From: a virus
Taxonomy: Duplodnaviria; Heunggongvirae; Uroviricota; Caudoviricetes
Virus record (IMG/VR): IMGVR_UViG_2778261180_000005
Direction: 5' to 3' (one strand)
DNA: 36,121 nucleotides
The position numbers were made by a program, and so were the translations under genes. The notes beneath the pieces are model-generated. The model did not search any database. It saw only the letters and a list, made by a program, of their open reading frames with translations, and was not told where the DNA came from. Shown here in pieces: positions 1 to 36,121 of the stretch (position 1 is the stretch's first letter; each line of letters starts with the position of its first letter).

Positions 1-387
1 ATGTTCAATATCATGATTCGTAAATTTGGCGAGATGACTTTCGAGAAAGCTGGTGTTGCTCGTACCGAAGAAGAAGCAATGGCCTTAGTTCTGGTAGCAC
101 TGAGATCATCACCTGAGATTATCGACGCTGAATATGTAGCTGCTGAGGGTGAGATTAAAGAGATTAAAGCGGTGGCTAAGGAATTAGGTGTTAAAGGTTT
201 CCGTAAGCTGAGACTATCCCGCGAGTCATATGTAATTGGTAAGCAAGGACAATACCTAGATGAGAATACCGTGATTATTCTACTGAATAAGATCACCCGC
301 TATGGTTTCCAGATTGAGCAATATAAAACGTGTTTCGAATTATACGAAAAAGGTTTGCTGGATACTCTGACCATCGTTCGCGCTTAA
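1..387 (+). CDS. hypothetical protein (128 aa)
   Basis: Long ORF starting at the window edge, so the true start is uncertain; hairpin GGTGGG..CCCACC at 403..420 follows. Confidence 0.5.
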   Translation: MFNIMIRKFGEMTFEKAGVARTEEEAMALVLVALRSSPEIIDAEYVAAEGEIKEIKAVAKELGVKGFRKLRLSRESYVIGKQGQYLDENTVIILLNKITRYGFQIEQYKTCFELYEKGLLDTLTIVRA

Positions 388-2762: not shown

Positions 2763-3761
2763 TTAGAGAGCCTCTAAAGGGCTTAAATCGAGTTCTAAGT
2801 TTTCCGGTGTTAAATCAGCTAACGGTGCATTCATCCACTGCGATAAATCTCGTTCTATGTCTTCATCACTAATGTAGTTGTTCAGATTGATTGCGTTGGT
2901 ATCATCAAAATACATTGGCTTAGATGGGTTGGTGTGGATGTATTCATTGATGAATGATTTAACATCTTTCAGCTTGCTAATCGGTAGCGTTTCTGTGAAT
3001 CCGCTATTCATTACCTTACGTGGGATTTTCTTGCCCTGAATATTCTTTTTAATCCCCATTTCTAAATCACCAGCTTTCCATCCAATGTTAAACAAATGTG
3101 AGCATTCAAAGGTGATTTTCTCGCTGGTGTGCTTCTGGTGTTCTCTTACCCGTTGCATCGGATCTTTGCGAGTGGTAATTCCATATTTGAAAAACTTCTC
3201 GCCAACACGAATTAGATAAAAGTGCATAGGGCGCTGTGCAAACTTGTTTCTGATAACCTGTTTTCTACCATTCTGAATTGATTTAAGTACACCCCTAACC
3301 AAAGGGCATGTTAACCCGCCTTGTCTGCGGTTATTGTGTAAATCACCTTTCTTGTGAATCTTTCCGTGGCACTTACAACGAAGAATTAGTTTAGTGTCAA
3401 CACCCTGATAAGGTTCAGCCAGACCTAACACATCCCACCCTATCGGCTTGTAGAACTTGCGAGCGTTTTCTAAGTGTTCTTCTTCGGTAAATCTAAACTT
3501 CTTCTTAGGCGGTGATACTCTATCTTTGCCAGTAAACTGACCAGTTAGAACATGACTAATACATGGCGTTTTAACCTTTCCGTTAACTTCTATGCAAACT
3601 TTGGTGTTCTGGAATGGTTTCTTTACAGGAAGCACAAAACCACTGTATAACCATCCATGCGCTTGACAAACTTTAATGATTCTGGTTTCATATTCGACCG
3701 GAGGGGTCGCACGTTTGCTTTTTGCGGTAAATTCGATATCCTTTGCTAAAGTAGTATTCAT
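2763..3761 (-). CDS. Zn-finger plus T5orf172/GIY-YIG-like domain protein (homing-endonuclease-like), 332 aa
   Basis: Start moved to ATG at 3761 (SD GAGGA 7 nt upstream); CxxC..CxxC-type cluster (CKCHGK..TCPLV) followed by FYLIRVGEKFFKYGITTRKDPMQRVREH. Confidence 0.65.
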   Translation of the reverse strand: MNTTLAKDIEFTAKSKRATPPVEYETRIIKVCQAHGWLYSGFVLPVKKPFQNTKVCIEVNGKVKTPCISHVLTGQFTGKDRVSPPKKKFRFTEEEHLENARKFYKPIGWDVLGLAEPYQGVDTKLILRCKCHGKIHKKGDLHNNRRQGGLTCPLVRGVLKSIQNGRKQVIRNKFAQRPMHFYLIRVGEKFFKYGITTRKDPMQRVREHQKHTSEKITFECSHLFNIGWKAGDLEMGIKKNIQGKKIPRKVMNSGFTETLPISKLKDVKSFINEYIHTNPSKPMYFDDTNAINLNNYISDEDIERDLSQWMNAPLADLTPENLELDLSPLEAL

Positions 3762-3796
3762 ATTAGTGTCCTCGAAAATAATAAGTTCACTACTAT

Positions 3797-4249
3797 TTAT
3801 TGAGAAAAATTTGTTGTAATGGTTGAAGACCACGGGCATGAGTAGTAACCACGACCGCCACCGATCAAGCAAATGGTCGGACGGAAGCCAGTAAGATCGC
3901 AAAATGAATCAGTGTCATGTGCTGGGGAACGATGCTCTGCTTCGTTAGAGAAAATGTTGGCTACCGGAGATTCCACTTTAACTTCCGGTGCTTCTTCAAC
4001 ATCTGACTTAACTTCTTCGACCACTGGTTCAACTGCCGGAGATTCTTCTTTTGTTTCTTCAATGACGATCTCAGGTTCTTTCATTGCTTCAACCAGAGAC
4101 GGATCAACTTCGTCGAATACCACTTTATCATCTGCGGTGTCTGCTGCCAGAATAAGATCGTTAATACTGGTTCCTTCTGCCGGAGTTTCTTCTTCCATTT
4201 CGGAAGCCAGTTTAGTTAATTCGGTTTCTACGAACTCGATCATCAACAT
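3797..4249 (-). CDS. acidic hypothetical protein (150 aa)
   Basis: Glu/Asp-rich ORF; the opposite-strand ORF 3873..4277 is Ser/Thr-rich as expected for an antisense artefact; weak RBS. Confidence 0.4.
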   Translation of the reverse strand: MLMIEFVETELTKLASEMEEETPAEGTSINDLILAADTADDKVVFDEVDPSLVEAMKEPEIVIEETKEESPAVEPVVEEVKSDVEEAPEVKVESPVANIFSNEAEHRSPAHDTDSFCDLTGFRPTICLIGGGRGYYSCPWSSTITTNFSQ

Positions 4250-4289
4250 TAAAGGTAATGCCTATAAGATAAATTAAGTGAGGTTTTTT

Positions 4290-4871
4290 ATGATGAATGA
4301 TGTGCGCAAAGCATGTGATATCCCGTTCAATTTTATCCGCACCAAAAATGGCAAAGCGCCATCACATCCAATTGATATGGAAGCAAGGATCGTGACCCGT
4401 ATTGAAAACGAGGGTTTACCCTTGATTTATCACGGATTCAAAGGTGAGTATAAATCAATCAATAGCCGTATTGTGCTAGAGTGTGAAAGCTGCGCAAGAA
4501 TCAGAGATATAACAGCAAAACAATTCTTACATAATCCTACTGTGTGCCCGTGTAATCGTAGCAAATATGACAACAAATATAAAAATGGGCAACCAGTATT
4601 ATATGTTATGCGGTGTGGTGATGTGGGTAAGGTTGGAGTAAGTCACAATGTGTTGACGAGAAAACATAAGCTAAGATGCCAGAATAAGATGAAATTTGAT
4701 ATCATCGAGACTTTCGAATTTCAAGACGAAAAAGACGCATACGCGGCAGAATTGTTTATCAAGAAAAACCTAGTAAAAGGTGATTTTGATATTAAAGAAG
4801 GTGCTACAGAAACGTTTGTTTATAATGAAAAAATGGTCAGAAATATAGCTAACGTCGCCAGCATATTCTAA
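4290..4871 (+). CDS. Zn-finger plus T5orf172/GIY-YIG-like domain protein, paralog of 2763..3761 (193 aa)
   Basis: ATG at 4290 with AGTGAGG SD; CESC..CPC cluster followed by LYVMRCGDVGKVGVSHNVLTRKHKL. Confidence 0.65.
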   Translation: MMNDVRKACDIPFNFIRTKNGKAPSHPIDMEARIVTRIENEGLPLIYHGFKGEYKSINSRIVLECESCARIRDITAKQFLHNPTVCPCNRSKYDNKYKNGQPVLYVMRCGDVGKVGVSHNVLTRKHKLRCQNKMKFDIIETFEFQDEKDAYAAELFIKKNLVKGDFDIKEGATETFVYNEKMVRNIANVASIF

Positions 4872-24450: not shown

Positions 24451-25962
24451 TTAGGGATCGGCTGGGGAATTTTTTTCTTCACCCTCGCCATTAACGATAA
24501 TATTTAGTGCGCTCTTTTCGGCTTGAATCTCTGAGAATACTTTTTCAGGATCATCACCACGTTCCAATATAACGGCAGTACGTGATTTAAGTCCGTTATC
24601 AATTAAAGCAATCTCGGCGCTTACGTCTTTAAATGGATCGACGGATTCAAAACGCGGACGGATAATAGTTGTATTATCGATAATATGCGGAATTGCAGTA
24701 ATACGAATCGGAACAATACCACGCGCGGAATAATGGCGTAGATATGCTTCGAAAATTGGCAATACCACTGTTTCAATTAATTTGTTTTGCAGTGCTTTAA
24801 CTCGTGTGCGCTGGGTTAATTCACCAAAACGTGCGGCTGAGTAGTTGATCTGGGAAGTGTCACCAGTCAAGCCCTGTTTAAACACGCCTAAGCCCATTGA
24901 TACGCTAGTAAACATCGCATCATTGAAGCTGTTAAAATCATCGCCTGATTGAGTAGATTGGATTGATTTAATCGTTGCCCCTTCCGGTAATTCCTGAATA
25001 GTACCTGGCGCGAAATCGTGAATAACTTCTGGCGCTTGATATTGTTCATCATCTTCACCAGTATCAAAATCGTCACCAGAATCTTTCGGACGCTCGATGA
25101 ACGCCATGTTACAAGCTGAAATTCGTTTCATGACCAGTACAGCTTCGCGGAATGCGTCTTGATGTGCGATATCCTTAATCACTGGCAGGAAGTCAGTCAC
25201 ACCACGTAAACTTTCCGCGCACAGTGGCTGGTAGTAGTGGCACACCTGAGAAGCATCTACGCGATAATTTTCGCCAGTGTAGGTCTGAGTCAGTAGATTG
25301 ATTTTTCTAAACCAGTATGCTACAGGGCGCATTGTGTCTACGTCATACTCAATCCCCTGATAGATCGCACGTTCTTTGCTTATTTCACGACTAAGCGACC
25401 AGTCGCACCTATCAGCAGACAGAATAGAAACTTGTAACTCATTGTTCTCTTTGGTTAAAACGATGAAGCATTCTCCACCCTGAACACGTTCAGATTCTGC
25501 CATTGCCAGCATTTCACGGAAGTTAAAGCGACCGTTGCGAGAGAAGCGTTTAGCACTCTGCGCCCACTTCCAGAAAGCATTCTCGATCTGCTTATTCAGT
25601 GCGGTGTCAAGTTTGCCATTTGATTTAACGATTGATGGTTTCGGATCAAGCCCCGTACCAACAACTTGGTCAACGATATACTGCTTGTATCGCTTACCTA
25701 CAGCATTGTTTATAGCCAGAGTACGACCCTGATCATAAAGGCGCTTACCGTTCGATTTGAGAGCCTTATTGAAGGTTCCTGTAATGGTGTCTTGTTGAAG
25801 CTGTCCATCAATGCGATCACCGACTAAGCCCAAAGAACGCTTAGACAAATCTTTCTGGAATTTTTCTACTTGTTTGTCGATAAAGATTTTTTGTTGTTGC
25901 TGGCGGTGATTAGTTTTAACTGGAGTTTCTACCGCCTTTTTGCGTCGAAAAAGATTAAACAT
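24451..25962 (-). CDS. portal protein (503 aa)
   Basis: Size and position between terminase and capsid; AAGGGG SD. Confidence 0.65.
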   Translation of the reverse strand: MFNLFRRKKAVETPVKTNHRQQQQKIFIDKQVEKFQKDLSKRSLGLVGDRIDGQLQQDTITGTFNKALKSNGKRLYDQGRTLAINNAVGKRYKQYIVDQVVGTGLDPKPSIVKSNGKLDTALNKQIENAFWKWAQSAKRFSRNGRFNFREMLAMAESERVQGGECFIVLTKENNELQVSILSADRCDWSLSREISKERAIYQGIEYDVDTMRPVAYWFRKINLLTQTYTGENYRVDASQVCHYYQPLCAESLRGVTDFLPVIKDIAHQDAFREAVLVMKRISACNMAFIERPKDSGDDFDTGEDDEQYQAPEVIHDFAPGTIQELPEGATIKSIQSTQSGDDFNSFNDAMFTSVSMGLGVFKQGLTGDTSQINYSAARFGELTQRTRVKALQNKLIETVVLPIFEAYLRHYSARGIVPIRITAIPHIIDNTTIIRPRFESVDPFKDVSAEIALIDNGLKSRTAVILERGDDPEKVFSEIQAEKSALNIIVNGEGEEKNSPADP

Positions 25963-25972
25963 GATTTACCCC

Positions 25973-26467
25973 TTATCGCGTAAGACGTACTTTAATATTT
26001 TTAATCGGGCTAATTCCCTGTTTACGTCGTTCGGCTTGAATTAATTTAGACAGTTGACGTTCATAATCAGTCTTTAATTGCTGGAGAACACCTAATGACT
26101 CATAGGCGAAAGTATTCCCTTTCACGGTCATTTGAGATAATGCGGCTTCGTCCCCAGATAAACGGGCGAAAATAACTTGCTCGATTAAGGCGATAGTTTC
26201 CCGCAGATATTCTTTTTTGGATTGTTTGGCGAATACTGGCAAAACAGTTAATTCCTGCATTGATACCAGTTCATCATCCAAAGTTATTACGATGGTATAT
26301 TTACCTTCGGCAAAATCTAAGGTTTTAATCTCATGATTAGCCGGAGTATCATCAACCTGATAAATGATACCTTTACTATTTCCTACCTGAATTGTTACAC
26401 CCTCTTCATTCGCCAGCGTGATTTTTTCGCCTTTACGAATTACTAAGGGAATTAGTTCTAAACTCAT
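25973..26467 (-). CDS. hypothetical head-associated protein (164 aa)
   Basis: Lies between the large terminase and portal genes; AAGGGG SD. Confidence 0.55.
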   Translation of the reverse strand: MSLELIPLVIRKGEKITLANEEGVTIQVGNSKGIIYQVDDTPANHEIKTLDFAEGKYTIVITLDDELVSMQELTVLPVFAKQSKKEYLRETIALIEQVIFARLSGDEAALSQMTVKGNTFAYESLGVLQQLKTDYERQLSKLIQAERRKQGISPIKNIKVRLTR

Positions 26468-26539: not shown

Positions 26540-28444
26540 TTAGAACGATGTTACCCAACTACGGCCTCTATTTGGACGTCTGGCGATGTTTTTACGTTGT
26601 GGTCGTGTGATTGGCTTAGTTTCTTCGATTTTCTCGTCAGATTGCGATTTAGGAGCTTTTACGGGTTCTTCGACAACACGGTTTAAGCTGTCTTTCATTG
26701 CAATGAGTTTATCCCATGACATTTTTGAAAGGACGTAGCGAGAAGCCGCTGTAGCATACACGGCGCAGTCGAGCGCCTCGTTCCTAACGCCTGGGTTCTT
26801 TACCCATCTCACGCCAGTAGTAGTACGCTTGACAGATTCACTTAAAAGCTGATCGAGATAATCATCAGGAACGGTGTCTGATATTTCTAAGCCAATATGA
26901 GGATTATCTTTCAGGTTCCTAGCCAACATTTCACGAAATGCAGTTTTACCCACATTAACACCCAACATAAGCAATTCATGACCACCTGTGCGGGTAGGTT
27001 TAACCGGAATGATCGGAGCGTTACCAGCAGAACTACCTTTGATAGCGTGTAAGTTCTTCCACTTGCCGCAAATACGGTATCCAGCTTGAGTGAATCGACC
27101 GTTCGATGTATCAAGGAAGCTGGCGAGCATAGGAACACGATCACCCGATACAGTAGTAAATTTGGTTTTATGGAAGTTGATTAATCTATCCCATACAGGG
27201 GATTCATATCGTTCACAGTTATGATCGTAAAAGCTGCGATGATCCAGAATATAAATCTTATCCTTTGCCACGCCCATGATTGTAGTTTCTGCGCGATCTA
27301 ATTGCTGGTCGGTACCCGCACACAAGAAAATCACGTCATCAGGGATATTCTCGATAGAAACATCTGTTTTTAGTTGTTCCAGTTCATTTGCTTCTACTGC
27401 CGTGTCCTGATCGTCGTATACCTTGCCTAACACGGTGTTATAAAATGATTGTAAATCAAAGGATTGCCACGCATGGCTAAAATCAACCACACAAGCGCGG
27501 ATCGTGCTGAAAGGTGAATACAGACGGCTGATCCAGAATCCTGCTACCTCACTTTCACGGGTTGCTCTCCACTCGCCTTGTGCTACTGCCCTGATTCGTT
27601 CCCCTTCGGTCCATGCGTTCTTACAGTGGGGGCAAATATAACGAGCGGTATCAGGATCGGGTAAGTTCTTACCATCGATGTTACGCCATTCAAATTGAAC
27701 GTTTTCCCACTCGATCACCTGGTGTTCCCCGCAATGAGGACACGGAACAAAAAACATACGCATATCACTTGATAACCATTGCTGGTTAATGCTTCCGAGC
27801 TTACTGGTCGGGGTACTGGATACGACTAATCGGCCTTCATCGCCAAAGGTAGTTAAACGGTTAGCAGCCAGTGCCACCGGATCACCTTCTTCTGAGGCTG
27901 TAGCAGCATCGATTTCGTCAAGCAATCCAACCTTTGCGGTCTTACCGCGTAGGGTTGATGGACTAGTAAGCGATACCATATAAAGGAAGTGGTTTGATTT
28001 GAGCTGGAGCTGATTGTTGTTATTAACAGAATTGCGATCATTCTTGTCTGTAACCACGTCTTTTAATGCATCACATGCTTCGATAGACGGTCGGATCTTA
28101 CCCGCGAGATATTGAGACATTTCTTTAGCGGTTGATTGTCCGATAATCATATTGCATGGATCGTTAGCCATCTGGTTAAACAGGATACCGTTTAGGATGG
28201 TAGTTTTTCCGATCTGCGCACTGGTCATCAGTACATACTTTTTCTTATTCTCAAGGAAAGGAGCATCAATCATGCCTTTCTGGAATGACAGCAATTTAAC
28301 TTTATCCCCCGCTTGAGGACCATCTACCAGCACCATATTCGCTTCGCACCATTCAGAAGGAAGGAGTTTAGGCGGTGGCGTAATATATTTGGCTGCATTT
28401 TTGAGAATCTTTTTTAATTTGGCCTTATTAGAAATCAGTTTCAT
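26540..28444 (-). CDS. terminase large subunit, lambda gpA family (634 aa)
   Basis: Walker A (SAQIGKTT); gpA-like motifs [30 protein letters not shown]; GAGGGT SD. Confidence 0.9.
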
Positions 28445-28487
28445 GTAATTACCCTCATTACGAAATATGAAGGTATTTATTAAATTG

Positions 28488-28515
28488 TTGATATTTTGAT
28501 AAATACGGGTATTAA
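28488..28515 (+). promoter_or_regulatory. candidate sigma70 promoter for the rightward accessory genes
   Basis: TTGATA, 16-nt spacer, TATTAA. Confidence 0.35.
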
Positions 28516-28529
28516 TTAAAGGGGGGTGT

Positions 28530-29132
28530 ATGCTAATTAATCAGCAACAAAGAGATGAATTAGAATTAGCCTTGTCTTGTACCGATCATGAATATCGTTT
28601 ACCAGTTAAGCATAAGCATTTAAAAACCGACTACACAACATCTGGCTTTAGTCGTGAGGAAGCGAAAGAGATTTTAATAGAGTTTTACCGCGATAATGGT
28701 TATACAGACGTTCACAACTTCTTTAAGAAGCATAGAACATCACATACAGAGTTTCGGAGAGTCCGAGATTGGTTTGATTTTGATATCAAGCGTTATTATC
28801 GAGTGGATGACGGTCCTATCTATCGGTTGCAGTGGACACCGATCAGGGAAGTGTTGAAACAGAAGAGATTGAATCACGCAATTACACGCTATCGTAACGA
28901 GGCTTTCAAGAAAGGCTATGGTGATACAAGGGAACTATTCGTTGAACTCGCTAACGTGCGTTATAGCCACTATTACAACGATCCTAAAGGGTTCTTTGAA
29001 GTGCTTCGCAAGGTTGATATAAGTCGGGGTACATACTATTCACGGTTGAAGAAGTACGGGATTAAGGCAGAGTTCTTTATGAGTATTGACGATGGAGAAC
29101 TTTTTCCGATAAAATGTAAGTCCTCTAAATAA
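28530..29132 (+). CDS. hypothetical protein with C-terminal HTH (200 aa)
   Basis: AAAGGGGGG SD; C-terminal [17 protein letters not shown] is homologous to the HTH of the 77-aa and 60-aa proteins. Confidence 0.6.
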
Positions 29133-29160
29133 AGGTGAACATTCACTTTAATTTGGAGAA

Positions 29161-29394
29161 ATGACTATGACTACTAAAGCTACTCGCGGTCGTCCTTGCC
29201 GTTTTAACGCTGAACAGATGGCTGATATTGCCTACGCTTACTATACAGCGGATCGTGGTAAGGAAGCGAAAGAACAGATTCTTAGTGAACATGGGATCTC
29301 AATCGCCCAATTCTATAAGAATATGAAGAAGTTAGACATTAAATTCTATGTTCAGATCGGTGATGGTCAGATCGTAGAAGCAACAGGTTTTTGA
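29161..29394 (+). CDS. small HTH protein (77 aa), terminase-small-subunit N-domain-like
   Basis: RGRPCRFNAEQ...GISIAQFYKNMKKLDIK; the ATG at 29167 has better SD spacing than 29161. Confidence 0.6.
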   Translation: MTMTTKATRGRPCRFNAEQMADIAYAYYTADRGKEAKEQILSEHGISIAQFYKNMKKLDIKFYVQIGDGQIVEATGF

Positions 29395-29409
29395 GTTTTG
29401 ATTCTCTTT

Positions 29410-29433
29410 GCCACTCTTCGGAGTGGCTTTTTT
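29410..29433 (+). terminator. intrinsic terminator
   Basis: GCCACTC ttcg GAGTGGC followed by TTTTTT. Confidence 0.85.
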
Positions 29434-29566
29434 GTATGTAAAACAATCTCGCCAGTTTTGGTGAGATCTATAGATGCCCTCAAAACTGAGGGGATGTGCT
29501 TAAAGTTCAGCATATCTATCTAAGTGGTTGATTCTTTCTAGAAATCCAAATCTGGATGCATCAGAT

Positions 29567-29598
29567 ACAAAAAAGCCCAGCGCAATTATGCGCCGGGC
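29567..29598 (-). terminator. intrinsic terminator after the Rha-like gene
   Basis: GCCCAGCGCA atta TGCGCCGGGC stem followed by a U-run on the minus strand. Confidence 0.8.
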
Positions 29599-29604
29599 GA
29601 TTAA

Positions 29605-30435
29605 TCAGATCCCAAAATCAACAAGGGAAATTACGTTACCTGATTCACGAATCTGTTTAGCAGCTTTGTTTTGAATCAGAATAGTGTTGTTCGGCTTAGG
29701 AAGATTCAGAGTTGCTTTTTGTTCTTCTTCCAGAATACCCAATTCAACCAACACAGGAAGAACATCAACCGTAAACTCAAGTTGGTAGTGAGCATTCATG
29801 CGGCAGAAAGACAGAGAAGAGTCATTAGCAACATACCCACACGGCTTGTTATTTTCATCGTAGACGCGCTCAATGTAGCCAGCAGTACGCAAGGCCGTTA
29901 GTGCTTCTTTAACCTTCGTAGCGCCCTTTTTAGCGCCTAACAGACGGGTCATTGAATGGCTATCTACTGATTTGCGAACATGAAGTTCAATCAGCTTTTT
30001 ATTTTCGCGAGTTTTCTTTAATGCCAGTTCGATCCAGTCTGTTTCTTCAAAGTCTGCATATGGATTAACGGCTAAACGTTCCTGACGCAGTTTTTCATTT
30101 TCTTCTTTCAGTCGCTTCCATTCCTGAATAACAACCATTCGACGCTTAACATCGTAACCAGTGACAAGAGTCAGCGTCATTTCTTCGTCTAAGTGATATA
30201 CTGGTTCTTTAACAGCATATCCTAAGTTATTGATTCTCTCGACAAATTCAGTTTTGAGCTGATCGATAATACCTAAAGATTCGTACATTTCGCGAATATC
30301 GCGCATTACATTGCTGTGCTTCTTATCGGTAAATTCAGCGATCTGACGAGAAGACATGGTCAGCGGTTTGGTGTTATCAACAACCAGAGACATTGAAGCA
30401 GTTTTAACAGTATTCATAGTAGTAACAGTATTCAT
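29605..30435 (-). CDS. Rha-family phage regulatory protein (antirepressor-like), 276 aa
   Basis: N-terminal LTMSSRQIAEFTDKKHSNVMRDIRE; start uncertain because of a tandem ATGAATACTGTTA duplication at the 5' end. Confidence 0.7.
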   Translation of the reverse strand: MNTVTTMNTVKTASMSLVVDNTKPLTMSSRQIAEFTDKKHSNVMRDIREMYESLGIIDQLKTEFVERINNLGYAVKEPVYHLDEEMTLTLVTGYDVKRRMVVIQEWKRLKEENEKLRQERLAVNPYADFEETDWIELALKKTRENKKLIELHVRKSVDSHSMTRLLGAKKGATKVKEALTALRTAGYIERVYDENNKPCGYVANDSSLSFCRMNAHYQLEFTVDVLPVLVELGILEEEQKATLNLPKPNNTILIQNKAAKQIRESGNVISLVDFGI

Positions 30436-30538
30436 AGTAAAAATTCCCCTTAAACGGTTTAGTGATTGATTCTCCTGTTTTTAACTGTCCACACGCCAAC
30501 GGCGCGCGGAACAATTTTATTTATAAGAAGTTTTTATC

Positions 30539-30685
30539 TCATTTAGATTCAGCAATCGCGCGATCAATTTCTTCTTGAATGCGACGCTGGCGTTCATGGA
30601 AGTCAACCATTGAGAAATTCAGGTTTGGGGTCCACGGTTTGCGGTTCGGGTTTTTACGTCCATCAATTTTCTTAGTAGTGTTCAT
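30539..30685 (-). CDS. small basic protein (48 aa), candidate
   Basis: Not in the ORF track (under 60 aa); AAGAGGA SD 7 nt upstream; consensus promoter directly upstream. Confidence 0.5.
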   Translation of the reverse strand: MNTTKKIDGRKNPNRKPWTPNLNFSMVDFHERQRRIQEEIDRAIAESK

Positions 30686-30743
30686 AATTAACATCCTCTT
30701 TACAAATCTAGGTCAAATAGGTTCAAAGTTGTCAAGTGCGATA

Positions 30744-30772
30744 ATCATAAAAAAGTCATAAAATTTTGTCAA
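30744..30772 (-). promoter_or_regulatory. sigma70 promoter (minus strand)
   Basis: TTGACA, 17-nt spacer, TATGAT when read on the minus strand. Confidence 0.6.
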
Positions 30773-30807
30773 TACCCCTTGACAAGACGCCAAAGGGTTG
30801 ACCTAAC

Positions 30808-31260
30808 TTACAGCATATCTAAGCCTTCATCGTAACCGTAGAAGCCATTCTGAGAAGAGAAGCAGATTGGTGCGTAGTCGTCGTCATCTTCGTCTTGTTC
30901 ATCGTGTTCTGGGGCTTCCTGAGCGGGTTGTTTACCATAATCAGCCATAATCTGGTCAAGATCGGCGATCCCATAGTAAGAGCCTAAATCAACGTCATAT
31001 TCACGAACATCAAACGGCAGGTCATCACGAACAATAATTGCCGGAATGTTGTTGTATTGTTCACGACCTTCATCAGTAAAGCAGTCTACGATCACCGTAG
31101 GGCGACCATTACGTTTAAGAGCATAGAAAGCAGTTGAGAAATTGGAGTCTTCGGAATGACGAATGATGTTATAACCACGATTAGCGAAAACATGCATCAT
31201 AGCCAGATTATCATCATGGTTCAGACCCAGAAGAATGAAAGGAGTTTTAGTATTGATCAT
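30808..31260 (-). CDS. hypothetical protein with acidic C-terminal tail (150 aa)
   Basis: AGAGGA SD; a 6-bp inverted repeat operator-like site sits upstream. Confidence 0.6.
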   Translation of the reverse strand: MINTKTPFILLGLNHDDNLAMMHVFANRGYNIIRHSEDSNFSTAFYALKRNGRPTVIVDCFTDEGREQYNNIPAIIVRDDLPFDVREYDVDLGSYYGIADLDQIMADYGKQPAQEAPEHDEQDEDDDDYAPICFSSQNGFYGYDEGLDML

Positions 31261-31281
31261 AGTGGAAATCCTCTAAAAGAA

Positions 31282-31303
31282 AGTGAATCAAAGTAAGTTC
31301 ACT
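31282..31303. promoter_or_regulatory. palindromic operator-like site
   Basis: AGTGAA-N10-TTCACT between the putative promoter and RBS of the 150-aa gene. Confidence 0.4.
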
Positions 31304-31464
31304 ATTATTTATAACGAGAAATTTTTGTCTAATTTGAAAGGAATTGGTATTCAGTCGGCTTCGCCTCCTTCATAGATTTTGATTAAATCATCATCAAAAC
31401 GAAGAAGTATCTTTAGAATATAAGAATCTTTCTTTTGGAGAAATAATAATCCGGAAGCAATTTA

Positions 31465-31493
31465 GCAACCGAAGGTTGCAATCCCGAAGGGAT
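31465..31493. other. two adjacent short hairpins with GAAG loops
   Basis: GCAACC gaag GTTGC and ATCCC gaa GGGAT. Confidence 0.4.
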
Positions 31494-31522
31494 ACCAATA
31501 CCTTTCATGATCATTAAAGTGA

Positions 31523-31750
31523 TCTAGAATCATCTAGTAACCAGTTAACTACTATTATCTTCAAAGTGATTATTACTATCTTTCTAGAATCAGTTAGTAA
31601 CTAGTTTAAAATCCCTTTCAAGAAAATCCTTTCAGAAGTGATTCTCGATGCCACGCAGTGGCGTCGCAGACGTTTGAGAGTGAGCGAAGCGAGCGAGCAA
31701 ACTAGTTAATTCCTTCTAAGACCATCTAGTATCATCTAGTTTAAATTAGT
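31523..31750. repeat. CTAG-rich direct repeats (about 27 bp, 3 copies)
   Basis: TCTAGAATCATCTAGTAACCAGTTAAC at 31523, TCTAGAATCAGTTAGTAACTAGTTTAA at 31583, related copy at 31723; TCTAGAA also occurs at 29537. Confidence 0.6.
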
Positions 31751-31943
31751 GTTACTAGAAGTAATTGGTTAGCGCTTCGCGCAGTCGGGCTACGCCCTCC
31801 TAATATCTTTTTGGTTATTTGTTGTTTTTGGTTTTACACATGAGCGTAGCGAATGTGTTATATAATATCTATGCACGCCCGATCCCCCGCTTTTGCCCCT
31901 CACTAAGTTAATGTTTTATAAAGAGTTTTTCTCACCAATCCTT

Positions 31944-32131
31944 TTCGGGGGCAAATTTCAGGGGCAAAAATTAGATTTTCAGGGGCAATTATTGGCATTT
32001 CAGGGGCAAAAATGAGGGGCAAAATCACTGTTTCCCAGAATTTCAGGGGCAAAAATAGTGGGTTTCAGGGGCAAAAATGGGATAGTGAAATCTAGGGGAT
32101 TTTGGTTCAGGGGCAAAATTCAGGGGCAAAT
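31944..32131. repeat. iteron array, about 10 copies of TTCAGGGGCAAAA
   Basis: Copies begin at about 31944, 31957, 31978, 31999, 32013, 32041, 32063, 32092 (variant), 32106 and 32119; spacing is mostly 13-22 bp. Confidence 0.85.
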
Positions 32132-32135
32132 TTCA

Positions 32136-32185
32136 TAGTGTAGGGCTAGTGTAGGTTTGAAAATCCTTTGTTGACACTGTGTAGG
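32136..32185. promoter_or_regulatory. TAGTGTAGG direct repeats (2 copies plus a TGTGTAGG inside the promoter spacer)
   Basis: Copies at 32136..32144 and 32147..32155; related copy at 32178..32185. Confidence 0.5.
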
Positions 32186-32199
32186 ATCGGTGGTATACT
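32171..32199 (+). promoter_or_regulatory. near-consensus sigma70 promoter
   Basis: TTGACA (32171-32176), 17-nt spacer, TATACT (32194-32199). Confidence 0.75.
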
Positions 32200-32591
32200 T
32201 GAAAATTCGAGATAAATATGTTATAATATTTGTATTGAAAGTGAAAATTTACCGATTTTCCTTCCTATTGTTATCACTGTGTTAAATTGTTATATGTCTG
32301 TGAAGATTTGGATCTGAGAGAAAATCTTGTAACAAATCTTTACAATTCATAGCTCAATTAATGCTCACCGCTTTAGCAAAAAGTGCTATGCCTTTTTCTA
32401 AATTGATTGAATAAACATCAATTTGGTTAATTCGTGTTCTTCTCTTTAGCAATTCGTGCTGCGGTTTAACACATTTAACACGCCTGATAACATCCAAATA
32501 ACATTTTAACATATCTCTGTTCTAAATACATATATAAGAGATAAATGTGAGGGGTTGAAAAATTAAAAACAATCCCCATATAAATAATAGT

Positions 32592-32612
32592 GAGCGGTTA
32601 ACGCTCTTTTTT
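32592..32612 (+). terminator. intrinsic terminator/attenuator ending a ~400-nt untranslated transcript
   Basis: GAGCG gttaa CGCTC followed by TTTTTT. Confidence 0.55.
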
Positions 32613-32647
32613 AAGAAATCATTAATCCAGATTTAGGAGGATTCAAG

Positions 32648-32830
32648 ATGGCACGACCTGTTAAGTTCACTCGTGAAATCGTTTTAGAAATGGCAAAGCG
32701 TTATTTTGAACTGACGCCTGATGTAGTGATTGGTGAATGGTTTAAAGGTGAAGGTATTGATCAATCAACCTTCCACAAACTCTTAAAGAAGTATGACATT
32801 AAAGTAAAGATAACCGCAGAGGTTTACTGA
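32648..32830 (+). CDS. small HTH protein (60 aa), paralog of the 77-aa protein
   Basis: Strong SD TAGGAGGA at 7 nt; MARPVKFTRE...GIDQSTFHKLLKKYDIK. Confidence 0.7.
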   Translation: MARPVKFTREIVLEMAKRYFELTPDVVIGEWFKGEGIDQSTFHKLLKKYDIKVKITAEVY

Positions 32831-32942: not shown

Positions 32943-33884
32943 ATGTTATTTTCCGCTAACTTTTTCACTAACGAAGTAACCAACGCTAAAGCAGTTATCA
33001 AATTTGGCACCGAAGCAAACAAGAAGATTCAGCCGAAAGTTGTTGCTCATGTTTCCTTTGCGCAGCAGAAATCCGCTTTCGCTGGCTTTAAAGCACATCG
33101 TGAAGCACTGATCGCGGCTGGCTTTGGTGTTGACGGTAAACTGCCTAACGGCATTCGTAAAGCAATCGACCGCGTTAAACCTGCTAAAGACGTTGCAGTA
33201 GACCACATCGTTACTTTTACCGTTAAGAACTCTTCTGAACTGTTCCACCTGGTTATTGCTGGTGATACTGCTATCGTTTCCGCTCCTAACATGGATTTTC
33301 AGGATACCGCTGATTGCCAGATCACCTTCGGTCGTCGTAAAGAAGTTACCGGAAAAGCTAAACTGAACTTCACTAAATCCGGCAATCCTTACTTTGCTGT
33401 TTTCTTTAACAGCCACGCTACCGAAAAAGAAGTTGTAGAACTGGTTGCTTATGAAGGTGAAGAGAAAGAACGTATTGAATCTTGCGAAGCATTTCTGGAA
33501 CTGGAAGCACAGGTGAATGCTGTTTCTCCGGTTGTTGAAGATCGCTTTGCTGCACTGGAAGCACAGATCGCAGAACTGAAAGCTGCACTGGAAGAAAAAG
33601 ACCAGATTATCGAAGCACAGAAAGCTGAGATTGAAGAACTGAAAGCTAAAGAAGTTGCTCCGGTAGCAGTAGTTGAAAACGCGGCTGATGAGGCCGCAAA
33701 TGATGAAGTAGAAGTGAAAATCGATGTGATGCGTGATCCGATGGCTGCACTGCAATTACTTCGTTCTTTTAAGGGCAAATCTCATTTTTCTAGTGATGTA
33801 GAAGATGAGGAAGAAGAACAGAAACGCAATGCTGCAATGCTTCATGATGAAATGTACGGTACTAACTTTTCTTACTGCCAATAA
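32943..33884 (+). CDS. hypothetical coiled-coil protein with strongly host-optimised codon usage (313 aa)
   Basis: SD AGGAG; codons dominated by CTG, CGT, GGT, GAA, AAA and CCG, unlike the rest of the element; central coiled coil and acidic C-terminus. Confidence 0.8.
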   Translation: MLFSANFFTNEVTNAKAVIKFGTEANKKIQPKVVAHVSFAQQKSAFAGFKAHREALIAAGFGVDGKLPNGIRKAIDRVKPAKDVAVDHIVTFTVKNSSELFHLVIAGDTAIVSAPNMDFQDTADCQITFGRRKEVTGKAKLNFTKSGNPYFAVFFNSHATEKEVVELVAYEGEEKERIESCEAFLELEAQVNAVSPVVEDRFAALEAQIAELKAALEEKDQIIEAQKAEIEELKAKEVAPVAVVENAADEAANDEVEVKIDVMRDPMAALQLLRSFKGKSHFSSDVEDEEEEQKRNAAMLHDEMYGTNFSYCQ

Positions 33885-34453: not shown

Positions 34454-34547
34454 AGTTTTATATCCTCTTAAAAGTTAAGCGGGGGATGTTCTCCCCCGTA
34501 GACGTTGACCCGTTCAACATCTTTCTCACTATTATTTATAACGCGTT

Positions 34548-35105
34548 TTAAGACACATCAAATTCATCGTCTTCTTCTGGTTCTTGTTCTTCCGGTTCAT
34601 CCATTAATGGTAATTCTTCTTCCTCGTCTTCTCCCAAATCTGCATTTTCGAACAAGTCCCCTACTTCATTTAAACGACGCTCGATAATCTCCCTTAGCTT
34701 ATTCTTTAATGTTTTCTGGTCAGTGGCAGATTCGAGAATTTCTAAAGCGTCGATTGTGGCGATCTGCAAAATAGTCTGCTTCACTTTCCCGCAGTATTCC
34801 GCTAGCTCCTGCTCCACATAACCGACGGGAATCAGGAGATTCATTTTTTCCTGGTTCTCTCGTTCGATGGCGTCCGCTAATGCTCTTTCTCTGCGGAGAC
34901 GTTCTTGATCAATCGCTTCTTTGATTGAAGTTTGTTTAAGTGGGTTAATTACGTTCTTTAGCACCCAATCGCAACCTTCCTTTGCTGGTACACGACGCGT
35001 GTGGGTGTTCATCGGTAGTCCCCTTTCTAACCATCGCTTACCGCCACCATTCAATGTATAGCCATATAAACGGGAAATTTCTGTAAGGGTTAATTCTTCT
35101 TTCAT
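34548..35105 (-). CDS. Nu1-like winged-HTH protein; candidate terminase small subunit (or other DNA-binding factor), 185 aa
   Basis: GGAGGA SD; N-terminal LTLTEISRLYGYT...WLERGLP resembles the Nu1/MerR-type wHTH; coiled coil; acidic C-terminal tail. Confidence 0.5.
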   Translation of the reverse strand: MKEELTLTEISRLYGYTLNGGGKRWLERGLPMNTHTRRVPAKEGCDWVLKNVINPLKQTSIKEAIDQERLRRERALADAIERENQEKMNLLIPVGYVEQELAEYCGKVKQTILQIATIDALEILESATDQKTLKNKLREIIERRLNEVGDLFENADLGEDEEEELPLMDEPEEQEPEEDDEFDVS

Positions 35106-35401
35106 TGGTTATCCTCCATTAAATTTGCGTAATTTTATTTATTGGTTTTACGCAAAATCTAAGCGCCTAAATCGCATTCTAACGAAGGGAAAGATCCAGT
35201 AATGGTAAGGGTTAGGAAGTGGGTTAATAGTCGCGTAGCGACCGCGCCATGAGTGAAGTGATCACGTTTTAGATCCTGACGCGCACATCAAATAACGGGG
35301 TGCCGAAAACTCGCTTTATTTCACCCGTGGAACAGTACCTTTTGATTTTGTCAAGTCTTTTTTATAAATAATCGAAAATATTTTTCACGCGAGGGCAAAT
35401 C

Positions 35402-35770: not shown

Positions 35771-36121
35771 TTATTGGGGTTTACAACATTTAGGTTTGCC
35801 AATTCGCCTGGCTAACTCTTGCTGAGTGATTTCTGACTGTAAAAAAGCATTTAACAGCAATACTTTAGAGGCGACGCTCAAAGGTACTTCAATAAAGTGA
35901 TCATGACTATTTAATGGCGAAGGTAACGGGATAAGCTCGTTATCTTCAAAATAAAAATCAAATGCGGTCAGTAAAGCATCTTTTGCCGCTTCCATCGCTT
36001 CAGCGACAGTTTCGCCCTGCGTCAACGCTTCAGGGATATCCACAAAAGAAACCATATAACCGCCTTCCGGCGCGGGTGTAAGAGTGACGGGATAACGCAT
36101 AATTTCGACTGTCTCTCGCAT
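35771..36121 (-). CDS. hicB: HicB-like antitoxin, apparently truncated at its 3' end
   Basis: MRYPVTLTPAPEGGYMVSFVDIPEALTQGETVAEA... N-domain with enterobacterial-like codon usage; HTH begins (SEITQQELARRIGKPK) but the ORF ends CCKPQ* five codons later, at the composition switch. Confidence 0.7.
   Translation of the reverse strand: MRETVEIMRYPVTLTPAPEGGYMVSFVDIPEALTQGETVAEAMEAAKDALLTAFDFYFEDNELIPLPSPLNSHDHFIEVPLSVASKVLLLNAFLQSEITQQELARRIGKPKCCKPQ

Follow-up and report, generated by a model that had tools for sequence, protein, structure and literature searches.

The helix-turn-helix (HTH) domains of the transposase/resolvase-type, or 'homeodomain-like', group include the Pfam families HTH_Tnp_1 (PF01527, present in OrfA of IS3-type insertion sequences), HTH_23, HTH_28, and HTH_7 (Hin/resolvase). 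The domains are formed of three helices, with a basic arm of the pattern R-P-x-x-F/Y-[ST]-x-E positioned immediately before helix 1, and a recognition helix of the pattern G-[IV]-S-x-x-T-[FLY]-Y-[KR]. Sf6-type small terminase subunits (TerS; PF20901) belong to the same broad group and have a GRPxxY arm (AGRPSDY at the N-terminus of gp1) followed by an N-terminal HTH. The TerS of phage lambda, Nu1 (PHROG 57, PF07471), carries an excisionase/MerR-like winged HTH at its extreme N-terminus and then a coiled coil. Bipartite tandem-HTH binders, such as the N-terminal domain of CENP-B and the bipartite domain of Tc3 transposase, are also among the closest known systems to the proteins described here, p200, p77, and p60. 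These are encoded in a stretch of 36,121 nucleotides (IMG/VR virus record IMGVR_UViG_2778261180_000005; Duplodnaviria, Heunggongvirae, Uroviricota, Caudoviricetes), referred to below as the window, which is an almost complete temperate prophage of Escherichia coli. The three genes contain four paralogous HTH modules, two of which are in p200.

The p200 gene (28530-29132, plus strand) encodes a protein of 200 amino acids (aa) with an N-terminal helix formed by residues 3-16, followed by two tandem modules, each composed of an HTH and a hairpin. Module 1 (residues ~36-100; 28635-28829, plus strand) does not have an RGRP arm, and module 2 is formed by residues ~130-195 (28917-29114, plus strand). 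The p77 gene (29161-29394, plus strand) encodes a single module consisting of an RGRPCRF arm (residues 9-15), three helices, and a beta-hairpin. The relatives of p77 start at its third codon and are therefore 75 aa long. The product of the p60 gene (32648-32830, plus strand), which is located directly upstream of the gene for a 313-aa protein, is also a single module, with an ARPVKF arm (residues 2-7) and a shortened C-terminal tail. p200 is an internal tandem duplication, which would make it a bipartite binder, and p77 and p60 are single modules.

The first-pass annotation of the window had reported that the three open reading frames (ORFs) share a sequence motif, that the two short proteins begin with RGRPxxF or ARPVKF, and that the motif marks a family of small HTH modules. 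The motif in its strict form, [GD]I[SD]xx[TQ][YF][YH]xx[LM]KK[YL][DG]IK, has three matches in the six-frame translation, at nucleotides 29016, 29293, and 32753, all of them within the three ORFs, and the arms are present as described. None of 200 shuffled sequences contained the motif; as the motif had been derived from the three proteins themselves, however, this control is trivial. The paralogy of the modules was evident in BLASTP comparisons of p77 with p60 (E = 3e-6 over 52 residues), of p200 module 1 with p77 (E = 3e-4), and of p200 module 2 with p60 (E = 7e-4). Family alignments were built from homologues and contained 17 (A1), 15 (A2), and 29 (A3) sequences; the alignment A4 served as the module profile. 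In hhalign, the 77-aa and 60-aa families (A1 and A2) matched each other with an E-value of 4.4e-10 and a probability of 97%. Module 1 of p200 matched the 77-aa family with an E-value of 1.5e-8 and the 60-aa family with 1e-8, whereas the values for module 2 were 3.4e-6 and 1.7e-8, respectively. The two modules of p200 matched each other at 1.7e-5. The description as paralogous HTH modules is borne out by these comparisons and by the AlphaFold2 predictions, but the number of modules is four, because the second copy within p200 had been missed.

Each of the three genes is preceded by a good Shine-Dalgarno sequence, and the p200-p77 unit is closed by an intrinsic terminator (29410-29437, plus strand) that faces the Rha operon terminator (29598-29575) in convergent orientation. 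In comparisons with relatives, the proportion of nonsynonymous differences (pN) is far below that of synonymous differences (pS), and the corresponding ratio of substitution rates (dN/dS) is 0.09-0.38 where dS is not saturated and could be calculated. Based on the ribosome-binding sites, the terminator, and the purifying selection, p200, p77, and p60 are real genes. Their products are basic, with isoelectric points of 8.8-9.4. The recognition-helix region of the p77 family has an invariant core, EH-ISxAQ-YK, and is nearly invariant in its remainder among the 17 members. All three gene families are annotated as 'hypothetical' and have no Pfam domain; the p200 family is formed of 43 protein clusters, also without a Pfam domain, from Enterobacterales.

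In the AlphaFold2 model of p77 (predicted local distance difference test (pLDDT) 79, predicted template modelling score 0.62), residues 1-11, which include the RGRP sequence, are disordered, and they are followed by helices 17-29, 34-43, and 48-57, and by beta-strands 63-66 and 70-73, which form a beta-hairpin. The model of p200 (pLDDT 75) contains helices 42-56, 61-67, and 72-82 with strands 86-92 and 97-99 in the first module, and helices 134-147, 152-161, and 166-175 with strand 180-186 in the second. According to these models, the full module has about 60 residues and consists of a flexible basic arm (RGRP or ARP), a three-helix HTH, and a 'wing' formed by a short beta-hairpin. The conserved [GD]I[SD]xx[TQ][YF][YH] motif is carried by the third helix.

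A HMMER search with the module profile against all 1.84 billion representative proteins detected, outside the families of the modules themselves, only the IS3 OrfA-like proteins P0116 and P0117 (database-corrected E-values of about 4e-4 to 6e-4) and multi-repeat HTH proteins, with E-values down to 2e-15. The strongest of these outside matches (P0087, P0088, P0090, and P0092) are 250-980 aa long and contain four to seven tandem HTH_Tnp_1-like repeats. All of the repeat proteins and IS3 OrfA-like proteins that were checked (5/5 and 2/2, respectively) have strong scores to HTH_Tnp_1, HTH_28, HTH_23, or HTH_7. In a direct hhalign comparison, the module profile matched P0117, the HTH of an IS3-type transposase OrfA, with an E-value of 2e-10 and a probability of 97%. 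The modules themselves have sub-threshold Pfam matches to HTH_Tnp_1 (8 of 23 members), HTH_7, HTH_23, and HTH_28, and none reaches the gathering threshold (best E = 0.017, with bit scores below 24.1). A search of PDB sequences with the module profile returned nothing below E = 0.03, and Foldseek found nothing below E = 0.1 among viral structures, where the best match was a 'resolvase'.

The module is very probably a DNA-binding HTH of the transposase/resolvase-type group. It shares with IS3 OrfA and with HTH_23, HTH_28, and HTH_7 the basic arm directly before helix 1, a tri-helical HTH as predicted for the modules, and the pattern of the recognition helix. However, the modules differ from the HTH_Tnp_1 group in having an additional C-terminal beta-hairpin and in forming stand-alone or tandem conserved phage genes that lack a catalytic partner. 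Judged from its sequence, the module represents a divergent, lineage-specific branch of the group. It forms a new family, so far without annotation, of a DNA-binding domain whose general kind is well known.

The similarity to IS3-type OrfA raises the question of whether the modules are decaying remnants of insertion-sequence transposases that have no function in the phage. OrfA HTH domains are among their closest detectable relatives, and one public source labels an orthologue (P0034) as 'Transposase'. However, no transposase or recombinase catalytic partner was found next to the module genes, whose neighbouring ORFs encode the large terminase subunit (TerL), Rha, and proteins of unknown function; the serine recombinase of the prophage is located 26 kb away and has its own domains. 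The module genes are intact, are conserved in position across four genera, are under purifying selection, and have gained a beta-hairpin and a tandem architecture. We therefore regard an origin as functionless transposase debris as extremely improbable.

The first-pass annotation had also proposed that the modules resemble the N-terminal domains of TerS, that the RGRPxxF arm is typical of such domains, and that the proteins may be truncated TerS-like decoys that affect packaging specificity. Such decoys or specificity factors would bind the cohesive-end site (cos) or compete with TerS and thereby alter packaging. In most relatives, p200 and p77 adjoin the TerL gene, although divergently, and the combination of a GRPxxF...E arm with an HTH is found in the Sf6 TerS N-domain as well. 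The module profile aligns in register with Sf6 TerS gp1 over residues 7-53, but the match is not significant (hhalign E = 0.04, probability 1.3%), in contrast to the E-value of 2e-10 for IS3 OrfA. In addition, the Pfam model Sf6_terminase cross-matches the HTH_Tnp_1-like repeats of P0090, which places both within one broad group. The arm-plus-HTH pattern is common to this whole HTH group, so the resemblance to TerS was partly correct; however, the 'GRPxxF...E' arm is a trait of the transposase/resolvase/Sf6-TerS HTHs and not a signature of TerS.

The phage encodes its own complete TerS of the lambda Nu1 type, a 185-aa protein (34548-35105, minus strand) that matches phrog_57 'terminase small subunit' with an E-value of 6.4e-10. 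Its orthologues from Proteus and Salmonella match PHROG 57 over their full lengths (1.3e-22 and 2.5e-15, respectively), and that from Edwardsiella matches the Pfam family Phage_Nu1 at 1.2e-5. Lambda Nu1 itself is a member of PHROG 57 (1.3e-76) and is collinear with the 185-aa protein in BLASTP, although the similarity is weak. The HTH of this TerS is of a different type from that of the modules, and the module profile has no similarity to it (E = 0.3). The profile did not match lambda Nu1 either (hhalign E = 0.68), the modules have no match to PHROG 57, and they have nothing in common with the Nu1 architecture. None of 23 module sequences matched a terminase family of Pfam at E ≤ 1, and none of the three proteins matched one in PHROGs. 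A single TerS was present in the Foldseek matches to viral structures, at rank 26 with a template modelling score of 0.31, and no TerS is among the meaningful fold matches.

p77 and p60 end right after the module and, as the first-pass annotation had stated, contain neither an oligomerisation nor a TerL-binding region, and in p200 the AlphaFold2 model has a second HTH module in the corresponding place. The modules thus differ from Sf6-type TerS in lacking an oligomerisation domain and in belonging to a phage that has a different, complete TerS. The p200 and p77 genes are divergent from that of TerL and not co-oriented upstream of it, in the Edwardsiella relative they are located away from TerL, and no terminase gene is near the p60-like gene of a T4-like phage. 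Since the TerS of the phage belongs to a different HTH class, mimicry of TerS by the modules makes little sense. Accordingly, truncated terminase decoys or specificity factors are a very unlikely explanation of the modules, one that the profile comparisons already largely refute.

The position of TerS in the genome is unusual, about 6 kb from TerL (26540-28444, minus strand; gpA-type), with the module genes in between. The relatives from E. coli, Salmonella, Proteus, and Edwardsiella retain this split of the two terminase genes by a regulatory and iteron-containing block. Among the phages of the collection, the closest TerL (45% identity; locus L002, 1734-3716) is that of phage DCP80 (PQ671644.1), a 141-kb record annotated as T4-like. 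A Nu1-like TerS homologue is located 22 kb from this TerL (25784-26215 of the record), and the record may be a chimeric assembly or represent another case of a split terminase. The small ORFs upstream of the DCP80 TerL were considered as relatives of the module and are unrelated to it. A region upstream of the TerS gene in the window (35106-35260) is a possible cos, by analogy with the cosN/cosB layout of lambda. It contains an inverted repeat, TTTGCGTAA (35124-35132) and TTACGCAAA (35148-35156), and a GC-rich, partly palindromic sequence GTCGCGTAGCGACCGCGCC (35230-35248).

Genes for p200 and p77 are present in all 40 related loci, and the p60 gene is found in every locus that reaches as far as its position. 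All genes show free reassortment of their alleles among these loci, which indicates that the lineage is mosaic. It comprises lambda-like-headed temperate phages of Enterobacterales, whose relatives enter ycdX by means of a large serine recombinase. The E. coli, Salmonella, and Proteus loci have a common gene order: TerL on the minus strand, p200 and p77 on the plus strand, a variable block with Rha or other genes on the minus strand, about 1.4 kb of repeat-bearing noncoding DNA, p60 and p313 on the plus strand, and p94 and TerS on the minus strand. In contrast, in the Edwardsiella relative the iterons precede p200 (as two ORFs), a p77-like gene, p60, and a homologue of p313, all of these genes being on the plus strand, and its Rha gene is directly upstream of TerL. 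Based on this different order, the module genes are probably an old tandem gene array, and their adjacency to TerL is not universal. The p200 homologue of the Edwardsiella locus (L045, 7614-10579) is broken within module 1 into ORFs of 121 and 117 aa, and is either a pseudogene or the result of a sequencing error.

In a metagenomic T4-like contig (L043, 5454-5648), a 64-aa p60-like protein (MARPVKFTRE...) is the product of a gene located between those for the tail tube and the baseplate, which shows that the module also occurs outside this prophage lineage. The 204-aa neighbour of this protein was considered as a relative of p200 or p313 and is unrelated to both. No cultured phage had a DNA-level match to the region in a megablast search of the cultured-phage collection, and tblastn found no p200 homologue in phages; thus, no characterised phage carries these genes. 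A profile search of genome contigs with the p200 alignment was also without a match.

The module genes are located within the regulatory block of about 6 kb between the Nu1-type TerS and gpA-type TerL genes, and their strand is opposite to that of the genes for structure and lysis. When the non-structural ORFs were scanned against Pfam, PHROGs, NCBIfam, and PADLOC, no recognisable CI, Cro, or Q regulator was detected, and Rha/Ant were the only known regulators. Because no other known regulators are encoded, and because the module proteins are basic, conserved, and opposite in strand to the lytic genes, we infer that p200, p77, and p60 are sequence-specific regulators of transcription of this phage. 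They would probably act at promoter-proximal sites, for example at the conserved ATAAATA-type elements before the TerL, p200, p60, p150, and p94 genes. On balance, we favour with moderate confidence the reading in which the modules are lineage-specific regulators of phage transcription with HTHs of the transposase/resolvase type, and are neither truncated terminases nor the determinants of iteron specificity.

One of the small proteins could instead be the recombination directionality factor of the large serine recombinase (995-2689), or could act mainly through protein-protein contacts. The prophage uses this recombinase but has no recognisable excision factor, and the known serine-integrase excision factors are small and diverse proteins that are difficult to recognise by sequence. 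However, none of the families annotated as excisionases is similar to the modules, the pattern of the recognition helix and the conserved basic arm favour DNA binding, and four paralogous modules exceed the needs of such a role. A function in excision, or one exerted mainly through protein contacts, is therefore distinctly unlikely.

The proposed role in transcription directs attention to the 85-bp control region between the divergent TerL and p200 genes (28445-28529), a candidate promoter/operator whose sequence is conserved among loci from E. coli, Salmonella, and Proteus. It contains two ATAAATA elements positioned back-to-back, TTAATAAATAC (28473-28483) directed toward TerL and GATAAATAC (28496-28506) directed toward p200. 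The TerL-side element, (A/C)TAAATACCT, is located about 30 nucleotides before the TerL start codon. It is retained in the Edwardsiella locus (~4575-4590), where p200 is not adjacent, and there it directly follows a terminator and has no -35 box. The element is reminiscent of '-10-only' late promoters. The two arms of the gap were also considered as an inverted-repeat operator; however, two divergent -10-like promoter elements explain them at least as well, because Edwardsiella retains the TerL-side arm although p200 does not adjoin it there.

Another candidate site is a 16-nucleotide promoter-like motif, (A/T)TATAAATAATAGTGA, positioned 55 nucleotides upstream of the p60 start (32578-32593, plus strand). 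Copies of the motif, TTATAAATAATAGTGA, are also found upstream of p150 (31299-31314, minus strand) and p94 (34526-34541, minus strand), and weaker copies precede Rha (30511-30526, minus strand) and p101 (35362-35377, plus strand). There are seven matches in the window, compared to 0.72 expected, and none of 100 shuffled sequences reached this number. The motif is always aimed at the downstream gene and is conserved in relatives, and it looks like a phage-specific promoter element. A more far-reaching possibility is that the four modules together with Rha form the entire transcriptional switch, in which the tandem p200 or p77 would be an activator or sigma-like factor for '-10-only' TAAATA promoters. 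Such an activator would be a small-phage analogue of the recognition of T4-type late promoters. We consider this extended proposal improbable.

The repeats of the noncoding DNA were the targets suggested for the modules in the first-pass annotation. The iterons of the window are about ten copies of TTCAGGGGCAAA with 10-21 bp spacing (31943-32131), and the p313 gene (32943-33884, plus strand) encodes an unannotated coiled-coil/acidic protein of 313 aa. In Proteus and in one Salmonella relative, the iterons are replaced by CTAGGGAT repeats with 11-bp spacing. At least four copies of CAGGGGCAA are present in all 20 loci that have the same allele type of p313 as the window (type A), and none in the 21 loci without it (41 loci in total). 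Other p313 alleles pair with the CTAGGGAT repeats of 11-bp period or with TCAAATGCTAC repeats. The sequence identity of p313 is 57-100% within an iteron type and 20-27% between types. In contrast, loci among the 41 whose p60 is 92-97% identical to that of the window have neither type-A iterons nor type-A p313, and in five diverged loci the overall similarity of p77, p200, and TerS does not group by iteron type. Since the iteron type follows the p313 allele and not that of p60, the likely binder of the iterons is p313, which is probably an initiator-like protein of unknown family, as far as can be deduced from the co-variation of sequences.

These results also bear on a possible accessory role of the modules at the iteron region, itself perhaps an origin of replication or similar element; for example, p60 might autoregulate a p60-p313 operon or help to load p313. 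The p60 gene is always directly upstream of the gene in the p313 position and downstream of the iteron region, and in Edwardsiella the iterons are followed immediately by a single plus-strand cluster of all the module genes and the p313 homologue. However, iteron type tracks the p313 allele perfectly and independently of the p60 allele. Furthermore, the p60 of Proteus is 75% identical to that of the window and has a nearly identical recognition helix, yet the iterons of Proteus are CTAGGGAT, and the recognition-helix region of p77, with its invariant core, is nearly invariant across iteron types. An accessory role at the iterons is thus unlikely.

The CTAG repeats (31523-31748) are an unlikely target of p200, as they are identical in a related locus (L042) whose p200 is only about 52% identical to that of the window and differs in its recognition helices. 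The noncoding region of the Salmonella and Proteus relatives contains recurring copies of TTCTAGAAAGGATT, but this motif is poorly conserved in the window and was therefore rejected as a universal target. The earlier proposal that the modules are regulators acting on the nearby repeats is partly refuted: regulation is the most likely function of the proteins, but the repeats are unlikely to be their sites of action.

Chromosomal matches to the DNA of the window, with 80-99% identity, are present in 58 of 5,426 complete E. coli genomes (about 1%). The insertion site in strain UTME-12, as in the relatives from Salmonella and Proteus, is ycdX, a PHP-domain gene that adjoins ghrA. The right flank of the window (35771-36121, minus strand, and 1-387, plus strand) encodes a HicB-like antitoxin instead of ycdX as in UTME-12. 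The large serine recombinase gene is at the left end of the window, and the lysis, tail, and head genes occupy 4.9-28.4 kb of the minus strand in a block that ends with a lambda-family portal, a gpW-like protein, and the gpA-type TerL. The ORFs located between the recombinase and lysis genes (2763-4871) are cargo genes. Two of them (2763-3902, minus strand, and 4278-4871, plus strand) match the 'endonuclease' PHROG 681, and one of these has CapR homology domain. Two others overlap on opposite strands (3797-4249, minus strand, and 3873-4277, plus strand), and the product of the minus-strand ORF matches the PHROG 'minor head protein inhibitor of protease'. No match was obtained when the window was scanned for Rfam families and tRNAs, or in an NCBIfam scan, PADLOC detected no link to defence systems, and a literature search on ycdX and prophages found nothing relevant.

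The pattern of a GRPxxF arm followed by an HTH should not be taken for a terminase signature, and the annotation of this prophage is corrected in that the real TerS is the Nu1-type gene 6 kb from TerL. More unusual than the modules themselves are the split of TerS and TerL, the p313-iteron specificity pairs, the TAAATA-type promoter motifs, and the apparent absence of classical repressors. The module, if confirmed, would constitute a family of small DNA-binding proteins of phages that is new and has so far not been annotated. It would also provide a first handle on the control of a prophage lineage that is widespread, occurring in about 1% of complete E. coli genomes as well as in Salmonella, Proteus, and Edwardsiella, and that has no recognisable classical repressor.

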